Positions 3,254 through 63,950 of a stretch of 64,000 nt of DNA are shown here, piece by piece. A model generated the notes under the pieces. It saw only the letters and a list, made by a program, of their open reading frames with translations, did not search any database and was not told the origin of the DNA. Where the stretch lies: sequence record PZ495249.1. One strand, written 5' to 3'. Position 1 is the first letter of the stretch. Each line of letters starts with the position of its first letter. The stretch comes from a phage. A program made the position numbers and the translations under genes.

Positions 3254-3485
3254 ACATCCGATCACAGGTGTTACCTACTCTTGCGTTGGTAAGGGTGGAC
3301 TGTATTCAGTGCTAAGTTTCCCTACCCCTGCTGGTGTATCGAAGGTATTTGATCCTATTGTGATCTACGAAGACCTTCGTACTGGTGCGCAATATTGGCG
3401 TTTTCAGGGCGATTTCTTAGATCGTATGGAGGTGGTGAGTGGCGAAAACACCGAAGAAGCAATCCGCTCGAAAACCCGCTACTAA
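3246..3485 (+). CDS. hypothetical protein
   Basis: Track ORF 3195..3485 trimmed to ATG at 3246 overlapping upstream stop. Confidence 0.45.
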   Translation: MSKHPITGVTYSCVGKGGLYSVLSFPTPAGVSKVFDPIVIYEDLRTGAQYWRFQGDFLDRMEVVSGENTEEAIRSKTRY

Positions 3486-3777
3486 GCGTACAACGCCAGC
3501 TAAATCGCAAACTGCACCGAAACCTAAGTTTGACACGGAGGCATTTGTCTTTGACACACCGATTGAGAAGATTGAAGAGGCGCTCCAACGCCTTGAAGAG
3601 CAGGAGGCAGATCCTATGGCTGAACCTCTCACGCAGGATCAACTCTACTGGTGGGGATGGTGGACATTGCACATGCCTGATGCAAAAAGACGTGGCATGA
3701 CTACGGTTCCGATTTGTGCGAAAGAGTCTGCGGTGTTGGGGCTTTACGAGAAACCGAAAGGGAGGAAGAAGAAATGA
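3439..3777 (+). CDS. hypothetical lysine-rich basic protein, possible nucleic-acid binding
   Basis: Track ORF; GTG start 6 nt after GGAGG; N-terminal KTPKKQSARKPATKRTTPAK. Confidence 0.4.
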   Translation: MAKTPKKQSARKPATKRTTPAKSQTAPKPKFDTEAFVFDTPIEKIEEALQRLEEQEADPMAEPLTQDQLYWWGWWTLHMPDAKRRGMTTVPICAKESAVLGLYEKPKGRKKK

Positions 3778-12499: not shown

Positions 12500-12901
12500 A
12501 TGTCTGACGCTCTAAAAACTCAGGTCGATGGCGACCATTACAAGAAACAAAAAATCCAACCTATTGAATTAGCTTACCTTATCGGTGCAACACCATGCTT
12601 CACTAAGCTGGCGAAGTACATGACACGAGACAAGGGTGATCGTAATATTAACCTTGACAAGGCTATTCACTGTGTTAATATCGAGAAAGAAATTCATGAA
12701 ACCGCTATGTACCACATTCTTGATAGCTACCCTTTACTGGCTAACCCTGCAAGGTTAGGTCAGGCTGAAATGCTCATCAACATCTTCTCAGAAGATCCGT
12801 TTGTGCAAGCCGCGCTGAAAGCAATGATCAGACAGGACTACGACGAGGCAATTGCCGAAGTTGAAGCCCTGAAAAGGTTATTAAATGTCAAGCACGAGTA
12901 A
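12500..12901 (+). CDS. DUF3310-like phage protein
   Basis: Track ORF; VDGDHYK...IQPIEL...KY..R...D..KA pattern. Confidence 0.5.
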   Translation: MSDALKTQVDGDHYKKQKIQPIELAYLIGATPCFTKLAKYMTRDKGDRNINLDKAIHCVNIEKEIHETAMYHILDSYPLLANPARLGQAEMLINIFSEDPFVQAALKAMIRQDYDEAIAEVEALKRLLNVKHE

Positions 12902-13088
12902 GCAATATGGAGAAGGTGAGGTTTATAAGATCTACAATCGCAAAGGCGACAAGCTCTTACAAACTATCACCATGCCGGAGAGTATGTGCAAAGCAGGTCT
13001 GGATAGAATGTTGTTCTTCAAGTACAACATTGCCCCAGGCGATTATGTAGCTAAGAAGGTGAGTAACATTGGCGAACAAGGAACCTAA
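12885..13088 (+). CDS. hypothetical protein
   Basis: Track ORF. Confidence 0.4.
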   Translation: MSSTSKQYGEGEVYKIYNRKGDKLLQTITMPESMCKAGLDRMLFFKYNIAPGDYVAKKVSNIGEQGT

Positions 13089-13647
13089 GATTGTATGGGG
13101 TGAGGGAACCCCCTGGAGAACCCAAGCAGAATTCTACACGTATTTGCGAGGTTGTCTAAGGAGAGCATGGATTCGACACCCCAACAAGATTAAACGTATT
13201 AACGCACTACGCTACCAAGTTGATCGACTTGACAAAGACGGTAACGTAATGCGAGATAAGAAAACAGGTAAACCAAAGAAAATCTGGAACTGCAAGTGTG
13301 AACTCTGTGGACACACAGGCGGAATGAAAGATTTCCAAGTAGACCACATCCACGCCGCAGGTGCGCTAACCTGCTATGAAGACCTTCCAGGTTTTGCTCT
13401 AAGACTCCTCTACGTAAACGAAGAAGACCTACGAGTAGTTTGCAAGAAATGCAACTCAATCCTCGCATATGCTGATAAGCACAACTTATCGTTCGTAGAA
13501 GCGTCGGCGGAGAAAGAAGCCATTGAAATCTGTCGTACTAAGAAGGACAAACAGTGGCTTGAGAAACGTGGAGTGAAGCCTGAAAGTACAATAATTAAGC
13601 GAAGAAAACAGATAGTGAAAATACTTCTTGATCTTGCGCAACAATAA
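13069..13647 (+). CDS. HNH-family endonuclease-like protein
   Basis: Track ORF (TTG start); CELCG...DFQVDHIH...CKKCN. Confidence 0.5.
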   Translation: MANKEPKIVWGEGTPWRTQAEFYTYLRGCLRRAWIRHPNKIKRINALRYQVDRLDKDGNVMRDKKTGKPKKIWNCKCELCGHTGGMKDFQVDHIHAAGALTCYEDLPGFALRLLYVNEEDLRVVCKKCNSILAYADKHNLSFVEASAEKEAIEICRTKKDKQWLEKRGVKPESTIIKRRKQIVKILLDLAQQ

Positions 13648-13656
13648 CGTAATATA

Positions 13657-13680
13657 AGCCCCATCAGACGGGGCTTTGAG
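13657..13680 (+). terminator. GC hairpin, weak terminator/attenuator
   Basis: AAGCCCCATCAGACGGGGCTT. Confidence 0.4.
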
Positions 13681-13687
13681 GAGAACC

Positions 13688-14287
13688 ATGAGAATCGTCT
13701 GTGACTGTGATTTAGTAATAGCTCCGGCTGATGTTCCCTGGCTTGCCTGGTTGAATGCTGTGAGTGGTGACAATGTTGTATTGCCAGCAACTGGCAAAGA
13801 TGCACATTACGACCTATCTGCATACTTCCCAGACTTCGAGAAGAGGTTTGGTATCGACCCGCATTCCTTCTGGGATAATCAGCATCTGTACGACACAATG
13901 GGTACAGTGCCAGGCAGCGTGAATACTCTTAACTATCTTGGTAAGGCTGGAGATACCCTTCTCATCGCAAGCCACACCAAAGGTGGACATTTTAGCTCCA
14001 AGTACCGCTATATAAAACGCAACCTCCCTGAATTTGATTTCGGACGAGGAACAGGTAATGGCTTCTTTGCGACGAAGGAGAAATACCTACTCCCCTGCGA
14101 TATAGCAATTGATGATCGGGCAGAGAATCTCGTCTTATTCCCAGATCATGTAGTGAAGGTGTACTTCAACACCATATATCAAGATCCATTCTTGGAAGAA
14201 TTAAAAACCATGCCGAACGTACTGATAACTTCCATCGAAGATCCTTGGAAGGATGTATTCAATGCGGTTGACATTTATCATAAATAG
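13688..14287 (+). CDS. HAD-superfamily 5'(3')-deoxyribonucleotidase-like
   Basis: Track ORF 13676..14287 trimmed to ATG at 13688; N-terminal DxD (CDCDLV). Confidence 0.55.
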   Translation: MRIVCDCDLVIAPADVPWLAWLNAVSGDNVVLPATGKDAHYDLSAYFPDFEKRFGIDPHSFWDNQHLYDTMGTVPGSVNTLNYLGKAGDTLLIASHTKGGHFSSKYRYIKRNLPEFDFGRGTGNGFFATKEKYLLPCDIAIDDRAENLVLFPDHVVKVYFNTIYQDPFLEELKTMPNVLITSIEDPWKDVFNAVDIYHK

Positions 14288-14295
14288 GAGGAGAC

Positions 14296-55708: not shown

Positions 55709-55871
55709 GATATCCACCCCTTATCCGCAGCAACAAACACAAGGAACAACATAGCCCAACACACCAAGAAGGTTGCTACAAGTTCCCACATTAAACGTTT
55801 CATACTCACCTCTCATTGGCTTTCTTTCATGACAATCAGCCTACACCCTTCCCCGAAAGAAAGCAAGCAGT

Positions 55872-56057
55872 TTAAGATAGATACCACTTAAAGCCACAAG
55901 ATGGACAACAAGGCTCTTTGATACGGAGTTGTTCAGGAGCTTTCACCGGAGCATCTTTCAGGTTGTATGAAGTGAAGCATCTTGCACAAGTCACATCCTT
56001 ATCTGGAATCTCCATCTCAAACCAAGGAAGACCATTACCCCTCTTTGTCACTTTCAT
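55872..56057 (-). CDS. hypothetical Zn-ribbon protein
   Basis: Track ORF 55872..56069 trimmed to ATG with GGGAGGG RBS; CARC...CCPSCG. Confidence 0.45.
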   Translation of the reverse strand: MKVTKRGNGLPWFEMEIPDKDVTCARCFTSYNLKDAPVKAPEQLRIKEPCCPSCGFKWYLS

Positions 56058-56375
56058 ATACCCTCCCAATGGAAATCTTTCACGACCTTCATAGTAGACT
56101 TAATTACCCAACATTTCTAATAGCTTTTCCCTATCAATTATCCCCGAATAATCGTCTATTTTCCCCGAAAGATTAGACTAAAATTTCATCAGAGAAATCC
56201 GAATTCTATCCCCGTATACCCAGTTTATTTTGACACCCCCTGTTTTGCTATGAGCAGACCGAAAATATCCTTATAGGTCAGATGGTTAGGCCAAAACACT
56301 GCGCCATTGCGTGAGGTGCTTAACGCGATTTTTCGTGCCACCCCATTTCTCGACCGCACAATCCCCAAATATCAA

Positions 56376-56390
56376 TGAGAATCATTCTCA
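56376..56390. promoter_or_regulatory. perfect 7-1-7 palindrome TGAGAATCATTCTCA, operator-like
   Basis: Identical copy at 58172-58186; related AAATGAGA-N5-TCTCATTT at 56568-56590. Confidence 0.5.
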
Positions 56391-56567
56391 ATATCATTAG
56401 CATTCAATAACTTAGCTCACATTGTATATAGTTTCATGAGTGAACAATTACTTTTCTATCTAACAAGCAATAACTCTTTATGAATCAATGAGTTGGCAAG
56501 TCTAAACATCTGTTTGAGTGTTGCCAAATGGCTCGACCGTGGGCGCTCCCTCCTCGCTCATGCAAAT

Positions 56568-56590
56568 CAAATGAGAATGACTCTCATTTG
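56568..56590. promoter_or_regulatory. inverted repeat CAAATGAGA-N5-TCTCATTTG
   Basis: Shares TGAGA/TCTCA arms with the 15-bp palindromes. Confidence 0.4.
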
Positions 56591-56710
56591 TATATATTCT
56601 GTACCACAAAAGCCCGAATAAATCAAGAAAAGTCTCAAAGTTTCTCTTTTACGAGAAGTGGCTCAACATCTCACGATGTTTCTGCCCCCAAATTATATGC
56701 TTTTGAATGA

Positions 56711-57145
56711 TTAGGGTGCTAACAGTTGCCCTACTCGGTCGCCTGTCATTGCCCCCAAAATGATTAGCAATCGAATAGTTTCACAATGAAACAATCGCTG
56801 ATGATCATACCTGCATTTGTTAGTGTGCTAACAATGCCACCCTGTTATCGTTAGTGTGCTAACGATGATACATGCTAATAATAACGCACGTAATGGTTGA
56901 CAGCGTAAGCTATTACGCTTGCAAACATTGCAAGCTACATAATAACATGAGTGACTATTAGGAATAGTCATGAAATGGTGTGGTGTAGTTGCGTTATTAT
57001 TAGCTGCCTACGTTTCCGGCGTAGGCGCTAATGATACGCTTGCTAATAATTTTCCCCGAAATAATGTACTACGTGATAGTACCCCTCCGTGATGAATAGC
57101 TTTTTGAATAGATTATTCATAAGTTAATAGTTAGAATGCTAACAA
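56711..57145. repeat. four copies of TTAG-N3-GCTAAC inverted-repeat motif (iteron/operator-like)
   Basis: TTGTTAGTGTGCTAACAA at 56817, TCGTTAGTGTGCTAACGA at 56848, TTAGGGTGCTAAC at 56711, TTAGAATGCTAAC at 57131. Confidence 0.5.
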
Positions 57146-57639
57146 TAACAGACAGGAAAAGATAGGGTTTTAAGGGTTAGGGTTAATATAGATAGGCTGA
57201 TAACGGTTTCAGATAGTTATTGTTTCCGGTGTCAGATATGGCGGGGCTTATGGTTAGGATGATAATCATTAAAGGTGAGATAATAACAGTGATTTACTGT
57301 TAGTTGAGTAAGTAAAAGGGAGGTTTCAGGGTGTTAAATACGAATAGTTCCTATTCTCACATTATGCAATGAAAGTGAATAAATAAGCATAGAAAAGTAG
57401 TCAAATGAGAGGCATTATCAATAATGCCGATATTTCCCCGAAAAGGTGGCTTTGTGCTATGCGCGTGATGCTTCGCATCCATTTTAAGCGGTCTAAAACG
57501 CTCTCTGTGAGGCGCAAGACTCACCCCTGGCACTTGATCAAAGGTGCTTAGAAAACGCCATAACGCGATTTATGCACTTTTCGGCTGTGAGTGATTTCGA
57601 TAGGCAGAATCTATGATTCCAGCTATCACGGATCAGGAG

Positions 57640-57670
57640 GCAAAAAGAAAGGGCGCTTTGTGCGCCCTGG
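57640..57670 (-). terminator. rho-independent terminator for right-hand minus-strand block
   Basis: Hairpin GGGCGC-TTTGT-GCGCCC followed on minus strand by TTTCTTTTT. Confidence 0.55.
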
Positions 57671-57689
57671 TGTGATTAGATGGTTTCTG

Positions 57690-58049
57690 TTAGATTGTGC
57701 CTGTAACGTCGATCCAATAGGATAAATCAATTGTTCCTTTCTCTTTGATTTTTTCCATCAGGCGCTCGGCGCGGTTGGTGCTGTTGATATAATAATCAAA
57801 CATTTCTCCGGTTTCTTCGTCCTCTAATGTTTCGATTCGACCGATGATCACATGGTCCAGGGCGTAAACCTTGCCAGTGTACCAGTTAGTGAGATGAATC
57901 TCGCACTTATAATCATCTGATCCGCTGTCAATGGTTACAACGTCGATTAAATCACCTTTAAACACTGACAGGCTCCACATTGGATCGTTATCCACTACAC
58001 CGCCAAAATCTTTGCCTTTGATAGTAGTTGCCAGGTTAATGATAGTCAT
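57690..58049 (-). CDS. hypothetical protein
   Basis: Track ORF. Confidence 0.5.
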   Translation of the reverse strand: MTIINLATTIKGKDFGGVVDNDPMWSLSVFKGDLIDVVTIDSGSDDYKCEIHLTNWYTGKVYALDHVIIGRIETLEDEETGEMFDYYINSTNRAERLMEKIKEKGTIDLSYWIDVTGTI

Positions 58050-58171
58050 GGTGATTTCCTCGTTTACCGTTTTTCGTTTGGGCTGTTCTGCCCCTCTGAA
58101 AGTAATATTAAGCTATCTTGATTCATCCGTCAATAGTTAATTGTGTAAAGATGCAAAATAAATTTTGTGAA

Positions 58172-58186
58172 TGAGAATCATTCTCA
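58172..58186. promoter_or_regulatory. second copy of TGAGAATCATTCTCA palindrome
   Basis: Identical to 56376-56390; upstream (minus sense) of 57690..58049. Confidence 0.5.
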
Positions 58187-58443
58187 AATTATATTTCACG
58201 TAGCTCCCGTGTGTTTCCTTCGGTTTCATCGTTGCCGCCTCTATAAACATCATAACAAAACCAGGACAAAAAGCAAGCCCTGGAATTGTAAAGATTTAGT
58301 TAATCCACAAATTGATAATGGATATTGCTTCCTTTTCATCCTGTGCGTTCAAGTACAGATCTCGCACTATGATCAGCCTGTTACGGTCATCAAGATCTTT
58401 AACCTTCTCCCATTGCAGGGCATAAACCAGGGCTTCACGCATA

Positions 58444-58776
58444 TCATTGAACATAGTTACCTCTTTTTATTTCGCCTTCTTTCGGTAAAAGTAGCAGGTC
58501 TTTTGCGTTGTGTCCAGTGTAGCGGATCTGCTCCAGGGCCTCATCTATAGCGAAAATCTTCGCTTGTAGTTCACGCTGTCTTTCAATCAAGGCAAGTTGT
58601 AAGTTGTTTACGGCTTCGCCTGGTGTGGCTCCTGTGCTTTCGATCTCACCGTTGCCAGCGCCTGGCATAGCTCCCGCCTTGCTGCTGGCTGTATAATGTC
58701 CACGTTTAGACCAATACACCCTAAACCCTGGCATGTTGAAAACATACTTTTTCAGGATATTGCAAAAGATAATCAT
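58444..58776 (-). CDS. hypothetical protein
   Basis: Track ORF 58444..58797 trimmed to ATG with GAGGAA RBS. Confidence 0.45.
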   Translation of the reverse strand: MIIFCNILKKYVFNMPGFRVYWSKRGHYTASSKAGAMPGAGNGEIESTGATPGEAVNNLQLALIERQRELQAKIFAIDEALEQIRYTGHNAKDLLLLPKEGEIKRGNYVQ

Positions 58777-58781
58777 TCTCG

Positions 58782-59045
58782 TTATTCCTCGATCCAATCT
58801 AACGTTTCACAATATAACTTCGCTGTCAAGTGCTGCACGTAAAATTCATCTTTCGCCCACTCCCTAACAGCCTGATCGAAAGTAGGGTAATCGTAGGCGC
58901 TTGCCTCTTCGGTATTGTGCCACGGGTAAAGCGCGTTATATACCGTTTCAAGCGCTGCGCGTTGCTGCTCAAAGGTCATTGACTCAGGATCATAACATAC
59001 GGGCAAATTGTGCATTGTAAAGCCCTCAAAAATAGTAAATGTCAT
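58782..59045 (-). CDS. hypothetical protein
   Basis: Track ORF. Confidence 0.45.
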   Translation of the reverse strand: MTFTIFEGFTMHNLPVCYDPESMTFEQQRAALETVYNALYPWHNTEEASAYDYPTFDQAVREWAKDEFYVQHLTAKLYCETLDWIEE

Positions 59046-59211
59046 CAGTTACGTGGATCACAATCTGATTAGATTTAAAGTCCACAGAAAATTCACTGGT
59101 GTAATAGTTTGCTGTTTTCGTTGATATAGTTTGCGCCCCTATTGGATTGATCGGGGATGTGATTTCCTCTAACGTGTTACCCGTTGCACTTACTATCAGA
59201 ATGTTGAACAT
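59026..59211 (-). CDS. hypothetical protein
   Basis: Track ORF. Confidence 0.4.
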   Translation of the reverse strand: MFNILIVSATGNTLEEITSPINPIGAQTISTKTANYYTSEFSVDFKSNQIVIHVTDDIYYF

Positions 59212-59256
59212 GTTATCACCTCAAAGGCGGGGAACCGTAGCGGCTCCCCTTATTGG

Positions 59257-59613
59257 TTAGATGGCTGTTTCCAGGAGTTTAGCCAAATCGTTAATTAAAA
59301 AGTAAGGCTTGACAATTTCGAATTTACCGGATTTAAGGATCTCCGCTTTCATTTCGTCATGTTCTGCCTTTGTCAACGTGAAACGCCCCGCGCTATGGTG
59401 CGCCCAATATTTACCGCTTACGCGCTCAAAAGATACGCTTTCAATGGTAATGATAGTCATCATTTCAGCCGCTCCGCTCTCTACGCGAACCATCAGATCA
59501 GCCAGGGAAGATACGCACACCGCGCCGCTTTCGTATGTGCCATTGTTGGCATCAGTGAAAGTGATCAGGGATTTACCTTCTTTGATGGTTACTGGAAAAG
59601 TTACGTTTTTCAT
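59257..59613 (-). CDS. hypothetical protein
   Basis: Track ORF. Confidence 0.5.
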   Translation of the reverse strand: MKNVTFPVTIKEGKSLITFTDANNGTYESGAVCVSSLADLMVRVESGAAEMMTIITIESVSFERVSGKYWAHHSAGRFTLTKAEHDEMKAEILKSGKFEIVKPYFLINDLAKLLETAI

Positions 59614-59698
59614 GATGTTATCCTTTGAGGATGGACGGGGAACCGCTCCCCGCCCTACGCATTAACTATAACAAACGGTGATCAGCGTTGCAAGCGAT

Positions 59699-60082
59699 TT
59701 ATAAATAAATTTTGCCATCGTCGCCAACATAGGGATCGGCTTCGCCGTATGTCTGCGCTAACGTGGTGAGGCGCTCCCCTAAATCACCCAATCCACGATC
59801 CCAGAATCCCGCGCCGTGATGGTTGCGAGTTAACCAGAAGTCATGCCCCGCATACGCGTATGCGCCGCCGTCGCCTTTCCCGTACCATTCAGGCAGATCA
59901 GCCAGGAGGTTAGCCCCTGCAAATAAGAATGATTCGCAATCCTCTTTAACTTTGCGCATCGCTTCGGTGGAAAGTTCGAACCCTTCCAGGCTCTCCAGAT
60001 CTTCGCCGTCCTGGTCTGTCCCGCTGCTACTCCATAACATGCAAACGATATAAGCATTGATGAAAATTTCTTTGTTGGTCAT
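59699..60082 (-). CDS. hypothetical protein
   Basis: Track ORF 59699..60100 trimmed to ATG (MTNKEIF...). Confidence 0.5.
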   Translation of the reverse strand: MTNKEIFINAYIVCMLWSSSGTDQDGEDLESLEGFELSTEAMRKVKEDCESFLFAGANLLADLPEWYGKGDGGAYAYAGHDFWLTRNHHGAGFWDRGLGDLGERLTTLAQTYGEADPYVGDDGKIYL

Positions 60083-60083
60083 G

Positions 60084-60311
60084 TTACACCCCAAAATCAA
60101 AACTATTGAATAAACTTTCAGCTTTTGTCAATGCCAGATCATCCCACTCAGTAAAAAACGCTTTACAGGTGGCTTTACCGTTAACGAAACTTGAAACCTC
60201 ATACACAATGAAACCATTTTCAAGTATAGATGATAATGTAACTTTATTACCGTTTTTCTCGTTTACCTTGATTGTGCTTTCCATCTTATCACCTGTTTTA
60301 TTCTGTATCAT
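60084..60311 (-). CDS. hypothetical protein
   Basis: Track ORF. Confidence 0.45.
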   Translation of the reverse strand: MIQNKTGDKMESTIKVNEKNGNKVTLSSILENGFIVYEVSSFVNGKATCKAFFTEWDDLALTKAESLFNSFDFGV

Positions 60312-60366
60312 GTTTCGATGAATTTATAATACTTGCACCCCACTCGAAACGCAAGCATTATTTTAA

Positions 60367-60651
60367 CTAATTTGAAGATCCGCAACGGTCGCAATAATGA
60401 TCATCATCCTCATCATCTGCCACCTGTCCAACAAAATGATCTACTTTCGCTTTGAGGCTGTTATAATTGTTTTGCACTTCCTGGAACCGCTCCTGGTAGT
60501 ATTCCAGGGCCTCAAAGAGCGCCGCTTCGCTGCTCTTCGCTCTCATTGACAGATTCATCCCGCGCGTTTCGTCATACAGCCAGAACCCGTCTGTGCATTC
60601 AGCAATTGAGATTGTAGCAGACAATTTTTTACTATTCAATACTTTACTCAT
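60367..60651 (-). CDS. hypothetical protein with C-terminal Cys motif
   Basis: Track ORF. Confidence 0.45.
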   Translation of the reverse strand: MSKVLNSKKLSATISIAECTDGFWLYDETRGMNLSMRAKSSEAALFEALEYYQERFQEVQNNYNSLKAKVDHFVGQVADDEDDDHYCDRCGSSN

Positions 60652-60652
60652 C

Positions 60653-60946
60653 TTATTTTGCCTCGGTTGGTAAATGTTTTCTTTCTGGTTCTAATAGTAC
60701 ACGGGTATTATAAGAGAGTAAATAGGTGATCGCGCTTTTCTTCGTGTTGTACTTCTCCGCGATCTGCGCTGGTTTCATCCCGCCGAACTTATGCAGGGCG
60801 CGAATCTCTAATACCTGCTGATCTGTCCAGGTGATTTTACGCCCTCGCATATCTTGCTTAGGCTCCTTTCTTTTGTACGGCTCAACACTGATCGCCATAT
60901 TAACGAGGGATTGACGCAATTTTAAATTTTTGTTAGATGTTAACAT
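60653..60946 (-). CDS. hypothetical protein, possible HTH DNA-binding
   Basis: Track ORF; basic, helix-turn-helix-like segment. Confidence 0.45.
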   Translation of the reverse strand: MLTSNKNLKLRQSLVNMAISVEPYKRKEPKQDMRGRKITWTDQQVLEIRALHKFGGMKPAQIAEKYNTKKSAITYLLSYNTRVLLEPERKHLPTEAK

Positions 60947-60991
60947 GTTTCACCCTTTCAATGTTGGCGGCATTGCTGCCGCCTTTGCTGC

Positions 60992-61291
60992 TTATCGTTT
61001 CATAAAATCAATGGCGCTGGTCAGTTGGCTTACGCCGCCTTTCACCTGCTCAGTGATAAGATAGTAGCTCTTTTCCTTCATTGGTGCAAGCGTTATTTTC
61101 CTGATCTCCGCTTTATATTTCGCGGTCACTTTTGCCCCTAACTGATACCCCTTGATCGCGCCCTCAATTGTTGCTAACTGCTGGTTATGAGTTTTATAGA
61201 TAAACTCCGGTTTAAACTCCTGGCGCTGGCAAGCGATCAGAGTGTTGTTAGCAATAGCGCGTAAAGTTGAAAGGAGTTGTAAAGGTTGCAT
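60992..61291 (-). CDS. hypothetical protein
   Basis: Track ORF 60992..61348 trimmed to ATG with GAGGAA RBS. Confidence 0.45.
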   Translation of the reverse strand: MQPLQLLSTLRAIANNTLIACQRQEFKPEFIYKTHNQQLATIEGAIKGYQLGAKVTAKYKAEIRKITLAPMKEKSYYLITEQVKGGVSQLTSAIDFMKR

Positions 61292-61390
61292 ATTGTTTTC
61301 CTCGTTAGTGGTCGGCATCATTGCCGCCCCACAAAATAAGGATAGCAAAACGCCCCAGGGAGATCAAGCCCCAGGGCGAAATAATTCGAT

Positions 61391-61627
61391 TTATTTTTGT
61401 TGCTGGTGTACCAGCTTTAAACCGCGTAAGGCTTGCGCCTTTGTTGGGTGATAACTGGCGCTCTCACGGTTCAAGCCTGAATGAGTCCAGATAAAACCGC
61501 TTTTTGTTTCGCGAATATATCCGATCAGGCGGTTGTATTCCTCTACCGTTCCAGCGTGGATCACTTCGCTGATCTCCCACATACGATCAGGGAATTTTTT
61601 CTTAATGAGAATGCTTTTCGTTTTCAT
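61391..61627 (-). CDS. hypothetical protein
   Basis: Track ORF. Confidence 0.45.
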   Translation of the reverse strand: MKTKSILIKKKFPDRMWEISEVIHAGTVEEYNRLIGYIRETKSGFIWTHSGLNRESASYHPTKAQALRGLKLVHQQQK

Positions 61628-61866
61628 TTGTGGCCTCGTTTCATCACTTTAATAGCTTTAATGCCTTTACTTTCGAACCATTCCGGCGTGCGCATTTGCG
61701 CGGCGCTGCTACGGCTTTTCACCTTGTTAGACAATACACCGTAATAAGTGCCATCAGGATATTGACCGATGAAATAGTGATCTTTAACGCCATATTTCGC
61801 ATCACCTGCTTTCTCAATCGCTGCTGCCAGTTGGTCTAAGTTAAACATGATGATAATCTCTCTCAT
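61624..61866 (-). CDS. hypothetical protein
   Basis: Track ORF. Confidence 0.45.
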   Translation of the reverse strand: MREIIIMFNLDQLAAAIEKAGDAKYGVKDHYFIGQYPDGTYYGVLSNKVKSRSSAAQMRTPEWFESKGIKAIKVMKRGHK

Positions 61867-61940
61867 TTAGGCGGGAACCATTCCCGCCGCCCTATGTGAT
61901 GAATTATGCGCCCTTTCCCTCGGCGCGTCAACTATTATTT

Positions 61941-62396
61941 TTAGTAGTCTGTCAGATTTTCAGGGTTAAGGAATGGGAAGTGATGATCAAGCGTCAACCG
62001 ATCCCATTGCGCTAAATTGTGCTCTGCTGTACGCTTCACCGCTAACCCGCGCTCAATTTTCGCGGCGGCTTCGTCGATCCAGGTTTGGCACATGGTACGC
62101 GCTCGCATCATGAAAACGGATTCACCAGGATAAGTCTGTAAGTGATCCATTTCCTCAAGCGCAGCCATATAATCCCGAAAGGCTTCACGCGCTACGTGTT
62201 GACCTTCACCGAATTTTGAATGATGGTAAAAATAGTTGGTCTTATCCATAAATTCAGGTTCAATCTGGTAGGCGCTTTCCACGTCCTCAATTTTGCCATC
62301 CAGGACGATCACGCCCTCGCCACGTAAGGCGGTTACAACGTGGATCTTACGCTCGTTTAAACTGATAACCTTTTGACCTACGCAGAATTTATTCAT
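61941..62396 (-). CDS. hypothetical protein
   Basis: Track ORF 61941..62492 trimmed to ATG with GAAGGA RBS. Confidence 0.5.
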   Translation of the reverse strand: MNKFCVGQKVISLNERKIHVVTALRGEGVIVLDGKIEDVESAYQIEPEFMDKTNYFYHHSKFGEGQHVAREAFRDYMAALEEMDHLQTYPGESVFMMRARTMCQTWIDEAAAKIERGLAVKRTAEHNLAQWDRLTLDHHFPFLNPENLTDY

Positions 62397-62751
62397 GGTG
62401 CAATCCTTCGGATTTTCTGGCGTTGCACTATTGCCCCGCCCTATGTGATAAATAATAGCACGTAGCCGAAAGGATGCAACCCTTTTCTGCAATCTTTACA
62501 ATATTCACTTTATTGCATAGAAATGCACCCGTATGCAAATAATCACACGGTGAAACTAAATTTAAGACGCTTTGAGCGTTTTGGGAAAAGTCAATACCCC
62601 GTAAAACGCTCTAAAACGCCCCCTAAGAGGCTCTAACCGTTTCCCGTACCCTTGATCATTCTCTCCCTGATCTCGCTAAATTCACTTTTTTGCATAACGC
62701 AAAAATGAAAAATAATTGCGGGAACTCTTGACAAGCTCCCGCTCTTGTGAA

Positions 62752-62985
62752 TCAATCGAGGCGTGAAACGATGTAGTATAGATCTTGCTCTTTGTCGAAC
62801 AATTGAGAATCTTTCTCATCTATCAAATTACGGATCGCCATCAAGTGATCATTGGCTGGAATTTGTGCTGTACCTAATTGAGAAGCAATCTCATTAAGTA
62901 AACGCTGCGCGGTGTCGATAGCGTGGCGCTGCTGTCTTACGGTCGCATAGTCAAGTGCTGATTTTTTGATTGACACGTTAGCCAT
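62752..62985 (-). CDS. hypothetical protein
   Basis: Track ORF. Confidence 0.45.
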   Translation of the reverse strand: MANVSIKKSALDYATVRQQRHAIDTAQRLLNEIASQLGTAQIPANDHLMAIRNLIDEKDSQLFDKEQDLYYIVSRLD

Positions 62986-63219
62986 TTTCTGATCTCCAGG
63001 TTAAACGATGTTTCAGGATAGTAAAGAAAATAATACAATGAGCGCTAAAAAGTAAGATGCAATTTTGCACATTTTCGCCCCTTCCTCATAGGCAGGGTTT
63101 ACTGTGCTGTATTCCACTTGATAACGTTTCATTGGTTTACCCTCTCATGATAACCACCGCAAAAACCATTATCCATAACACGGCGGCAAAAGCAAGTTTT
63201 ATTTTAGTGTCACGTTCCA

Positions 63220-63510
63220 TCATGCCACCACCTGGAAAACATCATTGACAATTGCAGCCACGAAAGACGGCGCACAATTTGCCGGAAAAGGCAAGGAAAA
63301 ATCCTGGCTTGTTTCGTTATCAGTAGTTATCAAATGATAAGCTAATGAATAATAACCTTTCTTCACTTCTTTCAGACTGAGGATCAAAAGCGCCCCGTTG
63401 TTACCATCGCGTAACATTGCGATCAGCGTGTCGCCGTCCTGGTGTCTCTCCACCGTCACCGCATCACTGCTTACACCGCTAAACATAAGTAAAGATTTTG
63501 CCTGTTCCAT
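63220..63510 (-). CDS. hypothetical protein
   Basis: Track ORF. Confidence 0.45.
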   Translation of the reverse strand: MEQAKSLLMFSGVSSDAVTVERHQDGDTLIAMLRDGNNGALLILSLKEVKKGYYSLAYHLITTDNETSQDFSLPFPANCAPSFVAAIVNDVFQVVA

Positions 63511-63563
63511 TTTCTGCCCCTGTTGTTACTGTCATTACAGCTTAACCGTGATCGGCTCGTTTG

Positions 63564-63950
63564 TCAACTCTTTAAGTAATAACATTGCGCCATCGTGTAA
63601 ACGGTCATTTTGCCGATCATATCTTCAATCGCTCTTGTCATCAGGGGATTAACCTGATAAGGGGCATAATTGCCCCGCGCATTCTGTGCCACCCGCGCCG
63701 CTATAAGCTCGCATGATGCATCAGGATTATTATTGAGAACGGGTATCATTTGAGAATTTAATGCATTCTCAAAAGTTTTAGATAGATTGTAAGATCGTAA
63801 CGTTGCGTTAGTGTCGCCCGAAACTATCAGCATCTTTTCAATGCTGGCTCTGAGATCACGGCTTGCGCTCATTGCGTCGATCTCGGTGTCTGCTGCTGTT
63901 GCATTTAGGCTTACTGCCGCCAGGATAGCGGCGATGATAATCTTTTTCAT
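63564..63950 (-). CDS. secreted/periplasmic hypothetical protein (signal peptide)
   Basis: Track ORF; MKKIIIAAILAAVSLNATAADT; GGAGGAGGG RBS. Confidence 0.5.
   Translation of the reverse strand: MKKIIIAAILAAVSLNATAADTEIDAMSASRDLRASIEKMLIVSGDTNATLRSYNLSKTFENALNSQMIPVLNNNPDASCELIAARVAQNARGNYAPYQVNPLMTRAIEDMIGKMTVYTMAQCYYLKS

Follow-up and report, generated by a model that had tools for sequence, protein, structure and literature searches.

The gene-free stretch at positions 56070-57689 of the 64,000-nt window analysed here (the whole stretch of DNA taken from phage record PZ495249.1, one strand) is, taken as a whole, probably best explained as the genome end, or concatemer-junction region, of a phi92-like myophage, with the direct terminal repeat (DTR) collapsed to one copy and adjoined by a conserved structured element of about 153 nt that is probably an RNA. 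Megablast and blastn comparisons grouped the window with the Stephanstirmvirinae (phi92-like) myophages, the nearest gene-level relatives being the Klebsiella phages KP2025, phi1_175008, FBKp34, KP13-26 and FKP3 (~80-85%), and 135 phage records were matched by a distant blastn search with the region. The stretch is enclosed by two blocks of small genes on the minus strand, and both flanks are homologous to phi92, with the last gene of that phage, gp248, on one side and its first genes on the other. An initial annotation, made from the DNA letters alone, had described an AT-rich, repeat-packed hub without a credible open reading frame (ORF) and had suggested a replication origin with iterons, a cluster of protein-binding sites or small RNA genes. 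The absence of a credible ORF was borne out, as only ORFs of 60 aa or less occur within 56070-57689. The AT-richness proved moderate only, with a GC content of 0.33-0.47 compared to ~0.44 in the flanks and a minimum of 0.327 at 57100-57399. A 40-aa ORF at 56970-57092 with a signal-peptide-like start was rejected because its reading frame is not conserved, FKP3 having a TAG after 5 codons and homologs carrying 1-nt frame-breaking indels. A scan for tRNAs and tmRNA found none.

A terminal-repeat homolog within the gene-free stretch

The 343-bp DTRs annotated in phi92 (FR775895.2) and in Salmonella phage UAB_1 (OL656106) align to 56321-56664 of the window. For Escherichia phage BME3 (PP239276), a 342-bp DTR was determined by PhageTerm (PMC12210895), and the BME3 record starts at the equivalent of window position 56322. 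PhageTerm likewise gave a 317-bp terminal repeat for Klebsiella phage FKP3 (PMC11663894). The internal copy of this repeat (FKP3 501-817) nests within the phi92-type homolog at FKP3 487-830, which supports the same DTR location in the window's own clade. The 17-mer at the left boundary, GGTGCT/TAACGCGATTT (the slash marking the boundary), has exact matches in 10 relatives that belong to the E. coli, Klebsiella and Citrobacter clades. It is followed by GGCTCAACA after 345-346 nt in the window and in six of these relatives; in the metagenome contig ERZ808232 the distance is 403 nt. Homology indicates that the two boundary motifs, GGTGCT/TAACGCGATTT and GTGGCT/CAACA, mark the positions of the virion DNA ends in the relatives, and it is on homology to these relatives that the predicted terminus of the window phage rests.

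Assignment of the window segment to the terminal repeats is based on its homology to repeats with determined ends, on its conserved boundaries and on its place in the conventional map, where it separates the last gene (the gp248 homolog) from the first genes. It resembles the DTRs of phi92, UAB_1 and BME3 in length (342-344 bp), in boundary motifs and in neighbours (gp248 and the first small genes), but shares only ~70% identity with them and is present as one copy inside a contiguous stretch. As in other short-DTR phages, the terminase would cut the concatemer at or near the boundaries, and the repeat would be duplicated. The initial annotation had pointed to a duplicated GGTGCTTA...AACGCGATTT segment, which is indeed present, one copy being uninterrupted (56315-56331) and the other having 11 nt inserted between its halves (57543-57571). 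Since the aligned DTR boundary falls at 56321, the first copy should be the terminus itself. The identity of this site as a terminal-repeat junction, already annotated or reported for the relatives, had been missed.

Several deposited sequences show peculiarities at the same junction. The FKP3 record (PP895363.1) contains the 317-bp repeat three times (at 1-317, at 501-817 and at the right end), and because its positions 318-480 are sequence normally found across the repeat, the deposited record looks mis-arranged. The last 2.5 kb of BME3 (PP239276.1) hold two copies of the repeat region, the second being fused to half of the structured element and containing N's, and the feature labelled 'DTR-L' is placed at 146957-147298, not at an end; this arrangement looks like an assembly overlap. 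ERZ808232 NODE_18 (metagenome, 151,860 bp), the closest relative of the region, is a mosaic with about 50-98% identity; around 3480-3560 of its reverse complement, the right boundary of the repeat carries an insertion of ~70 nt that creates a second copy of the boundary motif (GTGGCTCAGCAT ... GTGGCTCAACAT).

A conserved, covarying element next to the repeat

In comparisons with E. coli and Salmonella phages, conservation within the gene-free stretch is highest at ~56870-57050, with 79-86% identity as opposed to ~70% for the repeat. This part contains the structured element, whose helices are listed in Table 1. Two hairpins seen in the initial annotation, CTTGCAA-N3-TTGCAAG at 56918-56934 and GCCTACG-N7-CGTAGGC at 57006-57026, were confirmed and correspond to helices H2 and H4. 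We gathered 25 copies of the element from phage records, IMG/VR and metagenomes, 23 of them distinct. In a MAFFT alignment of 15 sequences, 99.0% of the cells of a 53-pair structure can pair and 15 pairs change on both sides; structures slid by 1-3 columns retained 1-5 double-change pairs, and 0 of 500 shuffles reached the covariation score. A model-based alignment of the 23 distinct sequences gave 98.9% pairing cells and 15 double-change pairs, with 92 such cells. Judged by compensatory changes in diverged homologs, the element looks like a structured non-coding RNA, with 15 pairs compared to 1-6 in the slid controls. In P1, AACGCA/TGCGTT is replaced by ACCGCA/TGCGGT, AACACA/TGTGTT or AAGCCA/TGGCTT, and in H4, GCCTACG/CGTAGGC is replaced by GCCTATG/CATAGGC or CGCTACG/CGTAGCG, while one position of H3 shows five pair types. 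The close relative ERZ808232 differs from the window by one compensated pair in H3. We consider P1, P3, H3 and H4 to be robust. A pseudoknot between the H1 loop and the tail, and a kissing interaction of the H2 and H3 loops, were dropped, as neither is conserved in Phapecoctavirus by eye; a CsrA sponge, suggested by AGGA in the H3 loop and GGA motifs in the C-depleted tract further right, was rejected because these motifs are not conserved in E. coli relatives.

The alignment also discriminated between the two strands. Pairs of the G·U type, which only the + strand allows, occupied 62 cells versus 4 of the A·C type, and the + strand fold was more stable than the minus strand fold by 12-31 kcal/mol in 23/23 sequences, the window sequence itself having a folding z of -6.3. 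The G·U excess and the folding energies argue that a single strand is functional, namely the + strand of the window, which is antisense to all neighbouring genes.

These counts also bear on the idea that nothing but the terminal repeat is functional in this stretch, the rest being a spacer in decay, rich in repeats, with hairpins and repeats that arose by chance or as duplication remnants. Much of 56665-56870 and of the AT-rich tract is unalignable between clades, and the 9-mer TTCCCCGAA discussed below is absent from most relatives, as such decay would predict. We regard this idea as highly improbable, because the covariation counts, with 15 pairs showing double changes, already contradict it, because the element is better conserved than the repeat, and because the layout of the ~1-kb gene-free right flank is kept across Justusliebigvirus, Phapecoctavirus, Klebsiella and Citrobacter phages.

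Distribution and predicted expression of the element

The element is conserved in more than 130 related phages, and in at least 10 Phapecoctavirus records it lies 200-600 bp from the record end. A covariance model found one copy in the window and 9 further copies in metagenome contigs. In 5 bacterial-genome contigs picked by a DNA pattern the model found no copy, the pattern matches being due to chance; a P1-based pattern scan of IMG/VR was also discarded as giving mostly chance matches, the model assigning no score to candidates L020-L027. The neighbouring Gp30.8 did not lead to rV5-like phages, since the more distant homologs of this protein are in T4-like phages. E. coli genomes and plasmids contained no homolog of the element. 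The whole window had no match in Rfam 15 at the gathering threshold, and within 55800-57800 a search at E<=10 gave three sub-threshold matches only (E >=0.45), none of them credible. No RNA is annotated at the element's position in the phage records compared, and in the searchable literature we found no paper with the element's sequence and nothing relevant on RNA or the transcriptome in these phages. The element seems to be an RNA-like motif that occurs in this phage subfamily only and has not been described before. Of the three options raised by the initial annotation, small RNA genes are the best supported, inasmuch as the two hairpins are helices of a covariation-supported, one-strand element.

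Promoter-like sites suggest how such an RNA might be made. Of 18 relatives, 17 carry a + strand promoter-like site upstream of P1, at a distance of 0-65 nt. Within the repeat, the window has one further + strand site at 56571-56598, in the place of which E. coli relatives have TTGATA-16-TA(C/T)TTT with TGATAATGATTATCA, and one minus-strand site at 56499-56527, whose hexamers are kept and whose spacer is variable (TTGACA in phi92, TTGGCA-17-TATTAC in FKP3). The minus-strand promoter would read through the 250-bp leader, of which the blocks 56127-56205 and 56232-56275 are near-identical in ERZ808232, into the first small genes. The element would be made as RNA from a sigma-70-like promoter up to ~65 nt upstream or from a promoter in the repeat, its transcription running inward from the genome end and divergent from the first genes; we infer that it is rather likely to be made in this way. 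Of note, AATCAATGAGTTG at 56486-56498, just downstream of the minus-strand promoter-like site, fits the IHF consensus WATCAANNNNTTR and is kept in E. coli relatives as ATCAATGGCTTG.

Several observations weigh against this reading of the element. Promoter-like matches are weak and common in AT-rich DNA, with 9 found in the region compared to 7.2 expected, and a firm promoter assignment for the element was not possible. No canonical + strand terminator follows H4, and FBKp34, a member of the subfamily, has no element at the homologous place or in its first 50 kb. Regarding the fold, the inner domain is not settled: three covarying pairs back H1+H2, but an alternative single bipartite hairpin exceeds this fold in stability by 2-15 kcal/mol, and one pair specific to the hairpin covaries perfectly. 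The two folds could represent a switch, or one of them could be wrong. Moreover, the outer 10 bp of P1 are invariant and coincide with a repeated 9-mer, which may mean that they are constrained as DNA. Finally, strand asymmetry and compensatory changes fit any single strand, RNA or DNA. The fold could accordingly be used as single-stranded DNA, either as a priming or primosome signal on the displaced + strand, similar to G4 oric and plasmid ssi sites, or as a hairpin intermediate in duplication of the repeat. The lack of a clear promoter or terminator bracketing the element and its location near a terminus, where strand displacement is expected, would suit this explanation. Nevertheless, DNA hairpins tolerate G·T less well than RNA tolerates G·U, and the element still retains 62 such cells. 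Promoter-like sites recur upstream of it, and its unpaired junction bases, which are highly conserved, resemble an RNA-protein interface. We find use as single-stranded DNA quite improbable. Among the individual functional readings, the most likely one, which we favour tentatively, is that of a stand-alone small RNA that binds protein and is produced along with the genes across the repeat.

Short repeats around the element

The initial annotation had listed at least six copies of TTCCCCGAA. This number was overstated, as 56100-57690 contains three exact copies (56161, 57052 and 57434), next to the degenerate copies ATCCCCGAA (56140) and ATCCCCGTA (56208), but the clustering is real: of five exact copies in the window, four lie within 1.6 kb (55849-57442), all on the + strand. 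On the gene-sense strand, the motif reads YTTTCGGGGAAA. The copy upstream of the second gene is enclosed by a 10-bp inverted repeat, GCTTTCTTTC/GAAAGAAAGC, at 55819-55864 with a 26-nt loop, the 3' arm of which is not kept in ERZ808232. At homologous positions, the window shares TTCCCCGAA with ERZ808232 and Citrobacter phage Tr1 only; among the relatives compared, the E. coli phages, FKP3 and KP2025 lack it. TTCCCCGAA is a real repeated motif that is lineage-specific and outside the conserved core; that it is a regulator or promoter element is a guess.

All four exact matches of TTAG-N3-GCTAAC in the window lie in the gene-free stretch, as had been reported (56711, 56820, 56851 and 57131, spanning 56711-57143). 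Two of them had been described as extending to perfect 18-bp palindromes 30 bp apart; they are inverted repeats with perfect 7-bp arms around a non-palindromic TGTG spacer, and they lie 31 bp apart. The right arms of both hairpins (56817-56865) are copies of a further 9-mer, GCTAAYRAT, which occurs 9 times in the window compared to 2 expected. Eight of the nine copies fall within 56393-57146 (~750 bp), around the element. Each arm of P1 holds such a copy, as do the right arms of the TTAG..CTAAC hairpins, and the tail that follows H4 has two.

A C-depleted tract and a possible replication origin

On the far side of the element from the repeat lies a C-depleted, AT-rich tract (57080-57400) whose composition is the same in inny, phi92, phAPEC8, phiWec186 and ERZ808232, while the sequences are unalignable between clades. 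A telomere-like run, GGGTTTTAAGGGTTAGGGTT, is located inside the tract at 57165-57185, and AGATAG(G) occurs four times within 57161-57240. In an origin, a + strand transcript with the element would enter 57080-57400, its G-rich RNA on the C-rich template would form a persistent R-loop that primes the leading strand, and the GCTAAYRAT copies would bind an initiator. Such a mechanism would account for eight GCTAAYRAT copies in 750 bp, for an AT-rich, GC-skewed tract that is kept in composition across unalignable clades, for the G clusters GGGTTTTAAGGGTTAGGG, GGCGGGG and AAGGGAGG, and for a structured element directly upstream on the same strand. It also has parallels in ColE1 RNA II and T4 oriF/oriG, where a structured transcript is likewise followed by a tract with G over C in the RNA strand and by AT-rich, easily unwound DNA; these systems have no sequence similarity to the region. 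However, the cumulative GC skew shows a local excursion only, and the opposite strand of the tract, rich in C and poor in G, would resemble a Rho-utilisation site located past the terminator of the last gene. An origin of this kind seems unlikely to us. As for the origin with iterons proposed initially, the adjacent AT-rich, strand-asymmetric tract is the part that fits. The region has no DnaA boxes (no TTWTNCACA), its repeats are 9-mers of irregular spacing and mixed orientation instead of regular repeats of ~17-22 bp, and the adjacent genes encode small proteins and no initiator, which argues against a classical iteron origin and also counts against the R-loop origin.

Possible packaging signals beside the repeat

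To the right of the tract, the block at 57480-57640 is conserved in sequence throughout the subfamily. It has no consensus fold on either strand and was consequently treated as a DNA-level element. Together with the structured element and the 9-mers, this block, which holds the second AACGCGATTT copy, might form a set of pac signals, the 1 kb beside the repeat serving to recruit the terminase or a paused RNA polymerase for packaging initiation. The analogy is with T7-type packaging at the concatemer junction (PMC3276506; PMC13236587), where, in T7, transcription-linked events start packaging (PMC3276506). The T7 and T3 concatemer junctions resemble the region in having a short terminal repeat with early promoters on one side and a non-coding region by the last gene on the other, but share no sequence similarity with it and have no counterpart of the 153-nt multi-helix element; besides, the window phage is a myovirus without a known phage RNA polymerase. 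T7 also carries dispersed short repeats (SRL/SRR) beside its terminal repeat. That the region always adjoins the repeat, on the side opposite from the first genes, is in line with a packaging role, and so is the block, which is conserved without a fold, as expected for a protein-binding site, and repeats the core of the terminus motif. On the other hand, a duplex recognition site needs neither compensatory changes nor a G·U strand bias, and the distance from repeat to element varies from 209 to 465 nt. Weighing both sides, we find packaging initiation through such signals doubtful.

A second comparison concerns the phi29 pRNA, a structured RNA of ~120-170 nt with a multi-helix junction, whose gene lies a few hundred bases away from a genome end and is read inward. 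The element shares its size class, multi-helix junction, near-end location and, as predicted, its inward direction. Still, the phi29 pRNA covariance model gave no match even at E<=10, the ring-forming pair of complementary loops was not found in the element by eye, and phi29 packages protein-primed DNA without a terminase that cuts terminal repeats. A more novel, and at best possible, reading is that the RNA acts at the genome end of a terminase-using myovirus, either as a packaging recruiter or licenser at the junction or as part of an R-loop primer firing the phage origin, in which it would form the folded 5' domain, the inner-domain folds being a switch, possibly under iron or Fur-like control from the operator in the repeat. 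In the packaging-licensing version, the element would be a functional analogue of the phi29 pRNA or of the T7 polymerase pause.

Operator-like palindromes

The putative operator belongs to a family of recurrent sites. Palindromes of the form TGAGAAT-N-ATTCTCA at 56376 and 56572 flank the minus-strand promoter-like site on both sides, and TGAKAAT-N-ATTMTCA is found 12 times in the window compared to 1.8 expected, with 11 of the sites falling among the small minus-strand genes of the last 7.6 kb. In relation to the Fur box (7-1-7 TGATAATNATTATCA), the TGATAATGATTATCA in the repeat of E. coli relatives matches 17/19 positions of the 19-mer consensus, whereas the window carries TGAGAATCATTCTCA, with GAGAAT half-sites instead of GATAAT. 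The recurrent palindrome could fit a phage regulon or repressor as well as host Fur control. A conserved palindromic segment (TTATGCAAT / ATTGCATAA), followed by a Fur-box-like palindrome, is present in all clades at the right edge of the C-depleted tract (57357-57400), and may be another promoter-operator unit. A cluster of protein-binding sites, as envisaged initially, is plausible in light of the promoter-like sites, the palindromic operator-like sites, the GCTAAYRAT cluster and the conserved terminus motifs, all of which are candidates.

Flanking genes and terminator

Apart from the two genes that border the stretch (Table 1), the neighbouring genes encode small proteins with no function known. 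The intrinsic terminator of the last gene (57640-57668) is marked as a terminator in the records of Paula, phAPEC8 and FBKp34 and is 97% identical in Justusliebigvirus records. FBKp34 (MW394390.1) has a different 1.6-kb gene-poor region, located between convergent gene blocks at 12713-14293; only the terminator-adjacent block is kept there, and the terminal-repeat homolog is missing both there and in the first 50 kb.

Table 1. Features in and around the gene-free stretch (window coordinates)
Feature	Position	Strand	Remarks
First gene	55872-56069	-	small phage zinc-binding protein
TTCCCCGAA copy	55849-55857	+	outside 56100-57690; between first two minus-strand genes; gene-sense TTTCGGGGAA; homologous copy in ERZ808232
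Leader/control region	56070-56320	-	between terminal repeat and first gene; equals UAB_1 344-650 (left DTR to gp001)
Terminus motif GGTGCT/TAACGCGATTT	56315-56331		by alignment, phi92/UAB_1/BME3 repeat begins at the T equivalent to 56321
DTR homolog	56321-56664		344 bp, single copy in window; right boundary GTGGCT/CAACA
Palindrome TGAGAAT-C-ATTCTCA	56376-56390		operator-like, Fur-box-like
Sigma-70-like promoter TTGGCA-17-TAGACT	56499-56527	-	putative; inside repeat; directed at first genes
Promoter-like ATGAGA-16-TATATT	56571-56598	+	overlaps palindrome TGAGAATGACTCTCA (56572-56586); points to structured element
Hairpin-forming inverted repeat TTGTTAG-TGTG-CTAACAA	56817-56834	+	kept in ERZ808232 with different loop
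Hairpin-forming inverted repeat TCGTTAG-TGTG-CTAACGA	56848-56865	+	right arm is a GCTAAYRAT copy
Conserved structured element	56874-57026	+	~153 nt, multi-helix, covariation-supported
P1	56874-88/56990-57004	+	long closing helix
H1	56889-96/56910-17	+	inner domain
H2	56918-24/56928-34	+	inner domain
P3	56935-40/56983-88	+	helix
H3	56951-59/56963-71	+	helix
H4	57006-13/57019-26	+	hairpin
Tail	57027-57060	+	GCTAATGAT and GCTAATAAT, repeating part of the element's 5' half; then TTCCCCGAA (57052)
C-depleted AT-rich tract	57080-57400	+	300-400 bp; GC 0.27-0.39; GC skew +0.4 to +0.67
Sequence-conserved block	57480-57640		TTTTAAGCGGTCTAAAAC, ATAACGCGATTTAT, AGCTATCA; subfamily-wide; includes split terminus-like copy 57543-57571
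Intrinsic terminator of last gene	57640-57668 (stem 57650-57668, T tail to 57640)	-	GC-rich stem-loop and T run
Last gene	57690-58049	-	Gp30.8-like, homolog of phi92 gp248 (last gene of phi92)
TGAKAAT-N-ATTMTCA sites	56376, 56572, 57406, 58172, 58767, 59924, 60398, 61851, 62804, 62879, 63935		span 56376-63949

Implications for phi92-like phages

Phages of the phi92-like type, which include Justusliebigvirus, Phapecoctavirus and their relatives, are isolated widely for therapeutic use against E. coli, Klebsiella and Salmonella, and in their records this 1.5-kb region is left blank or is occupied by tiny spurious ORFs. The motifs GGTGCT/TAACGCGATTT and GGCT/CAACA offer annotators a sequence-level landmark of the physical ends, and the analysis exposes the FKP3 and BME3 records as apparently mis-arranged. 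As a candidate for a new phage RNA class, the structured element is well supported, and a covariance model of it is at hand. Because it always adjoins the terminal repeat and would be transcribed away from it, the element should provide a handle on how replication starts and how packaging is initiated in this subfamily.

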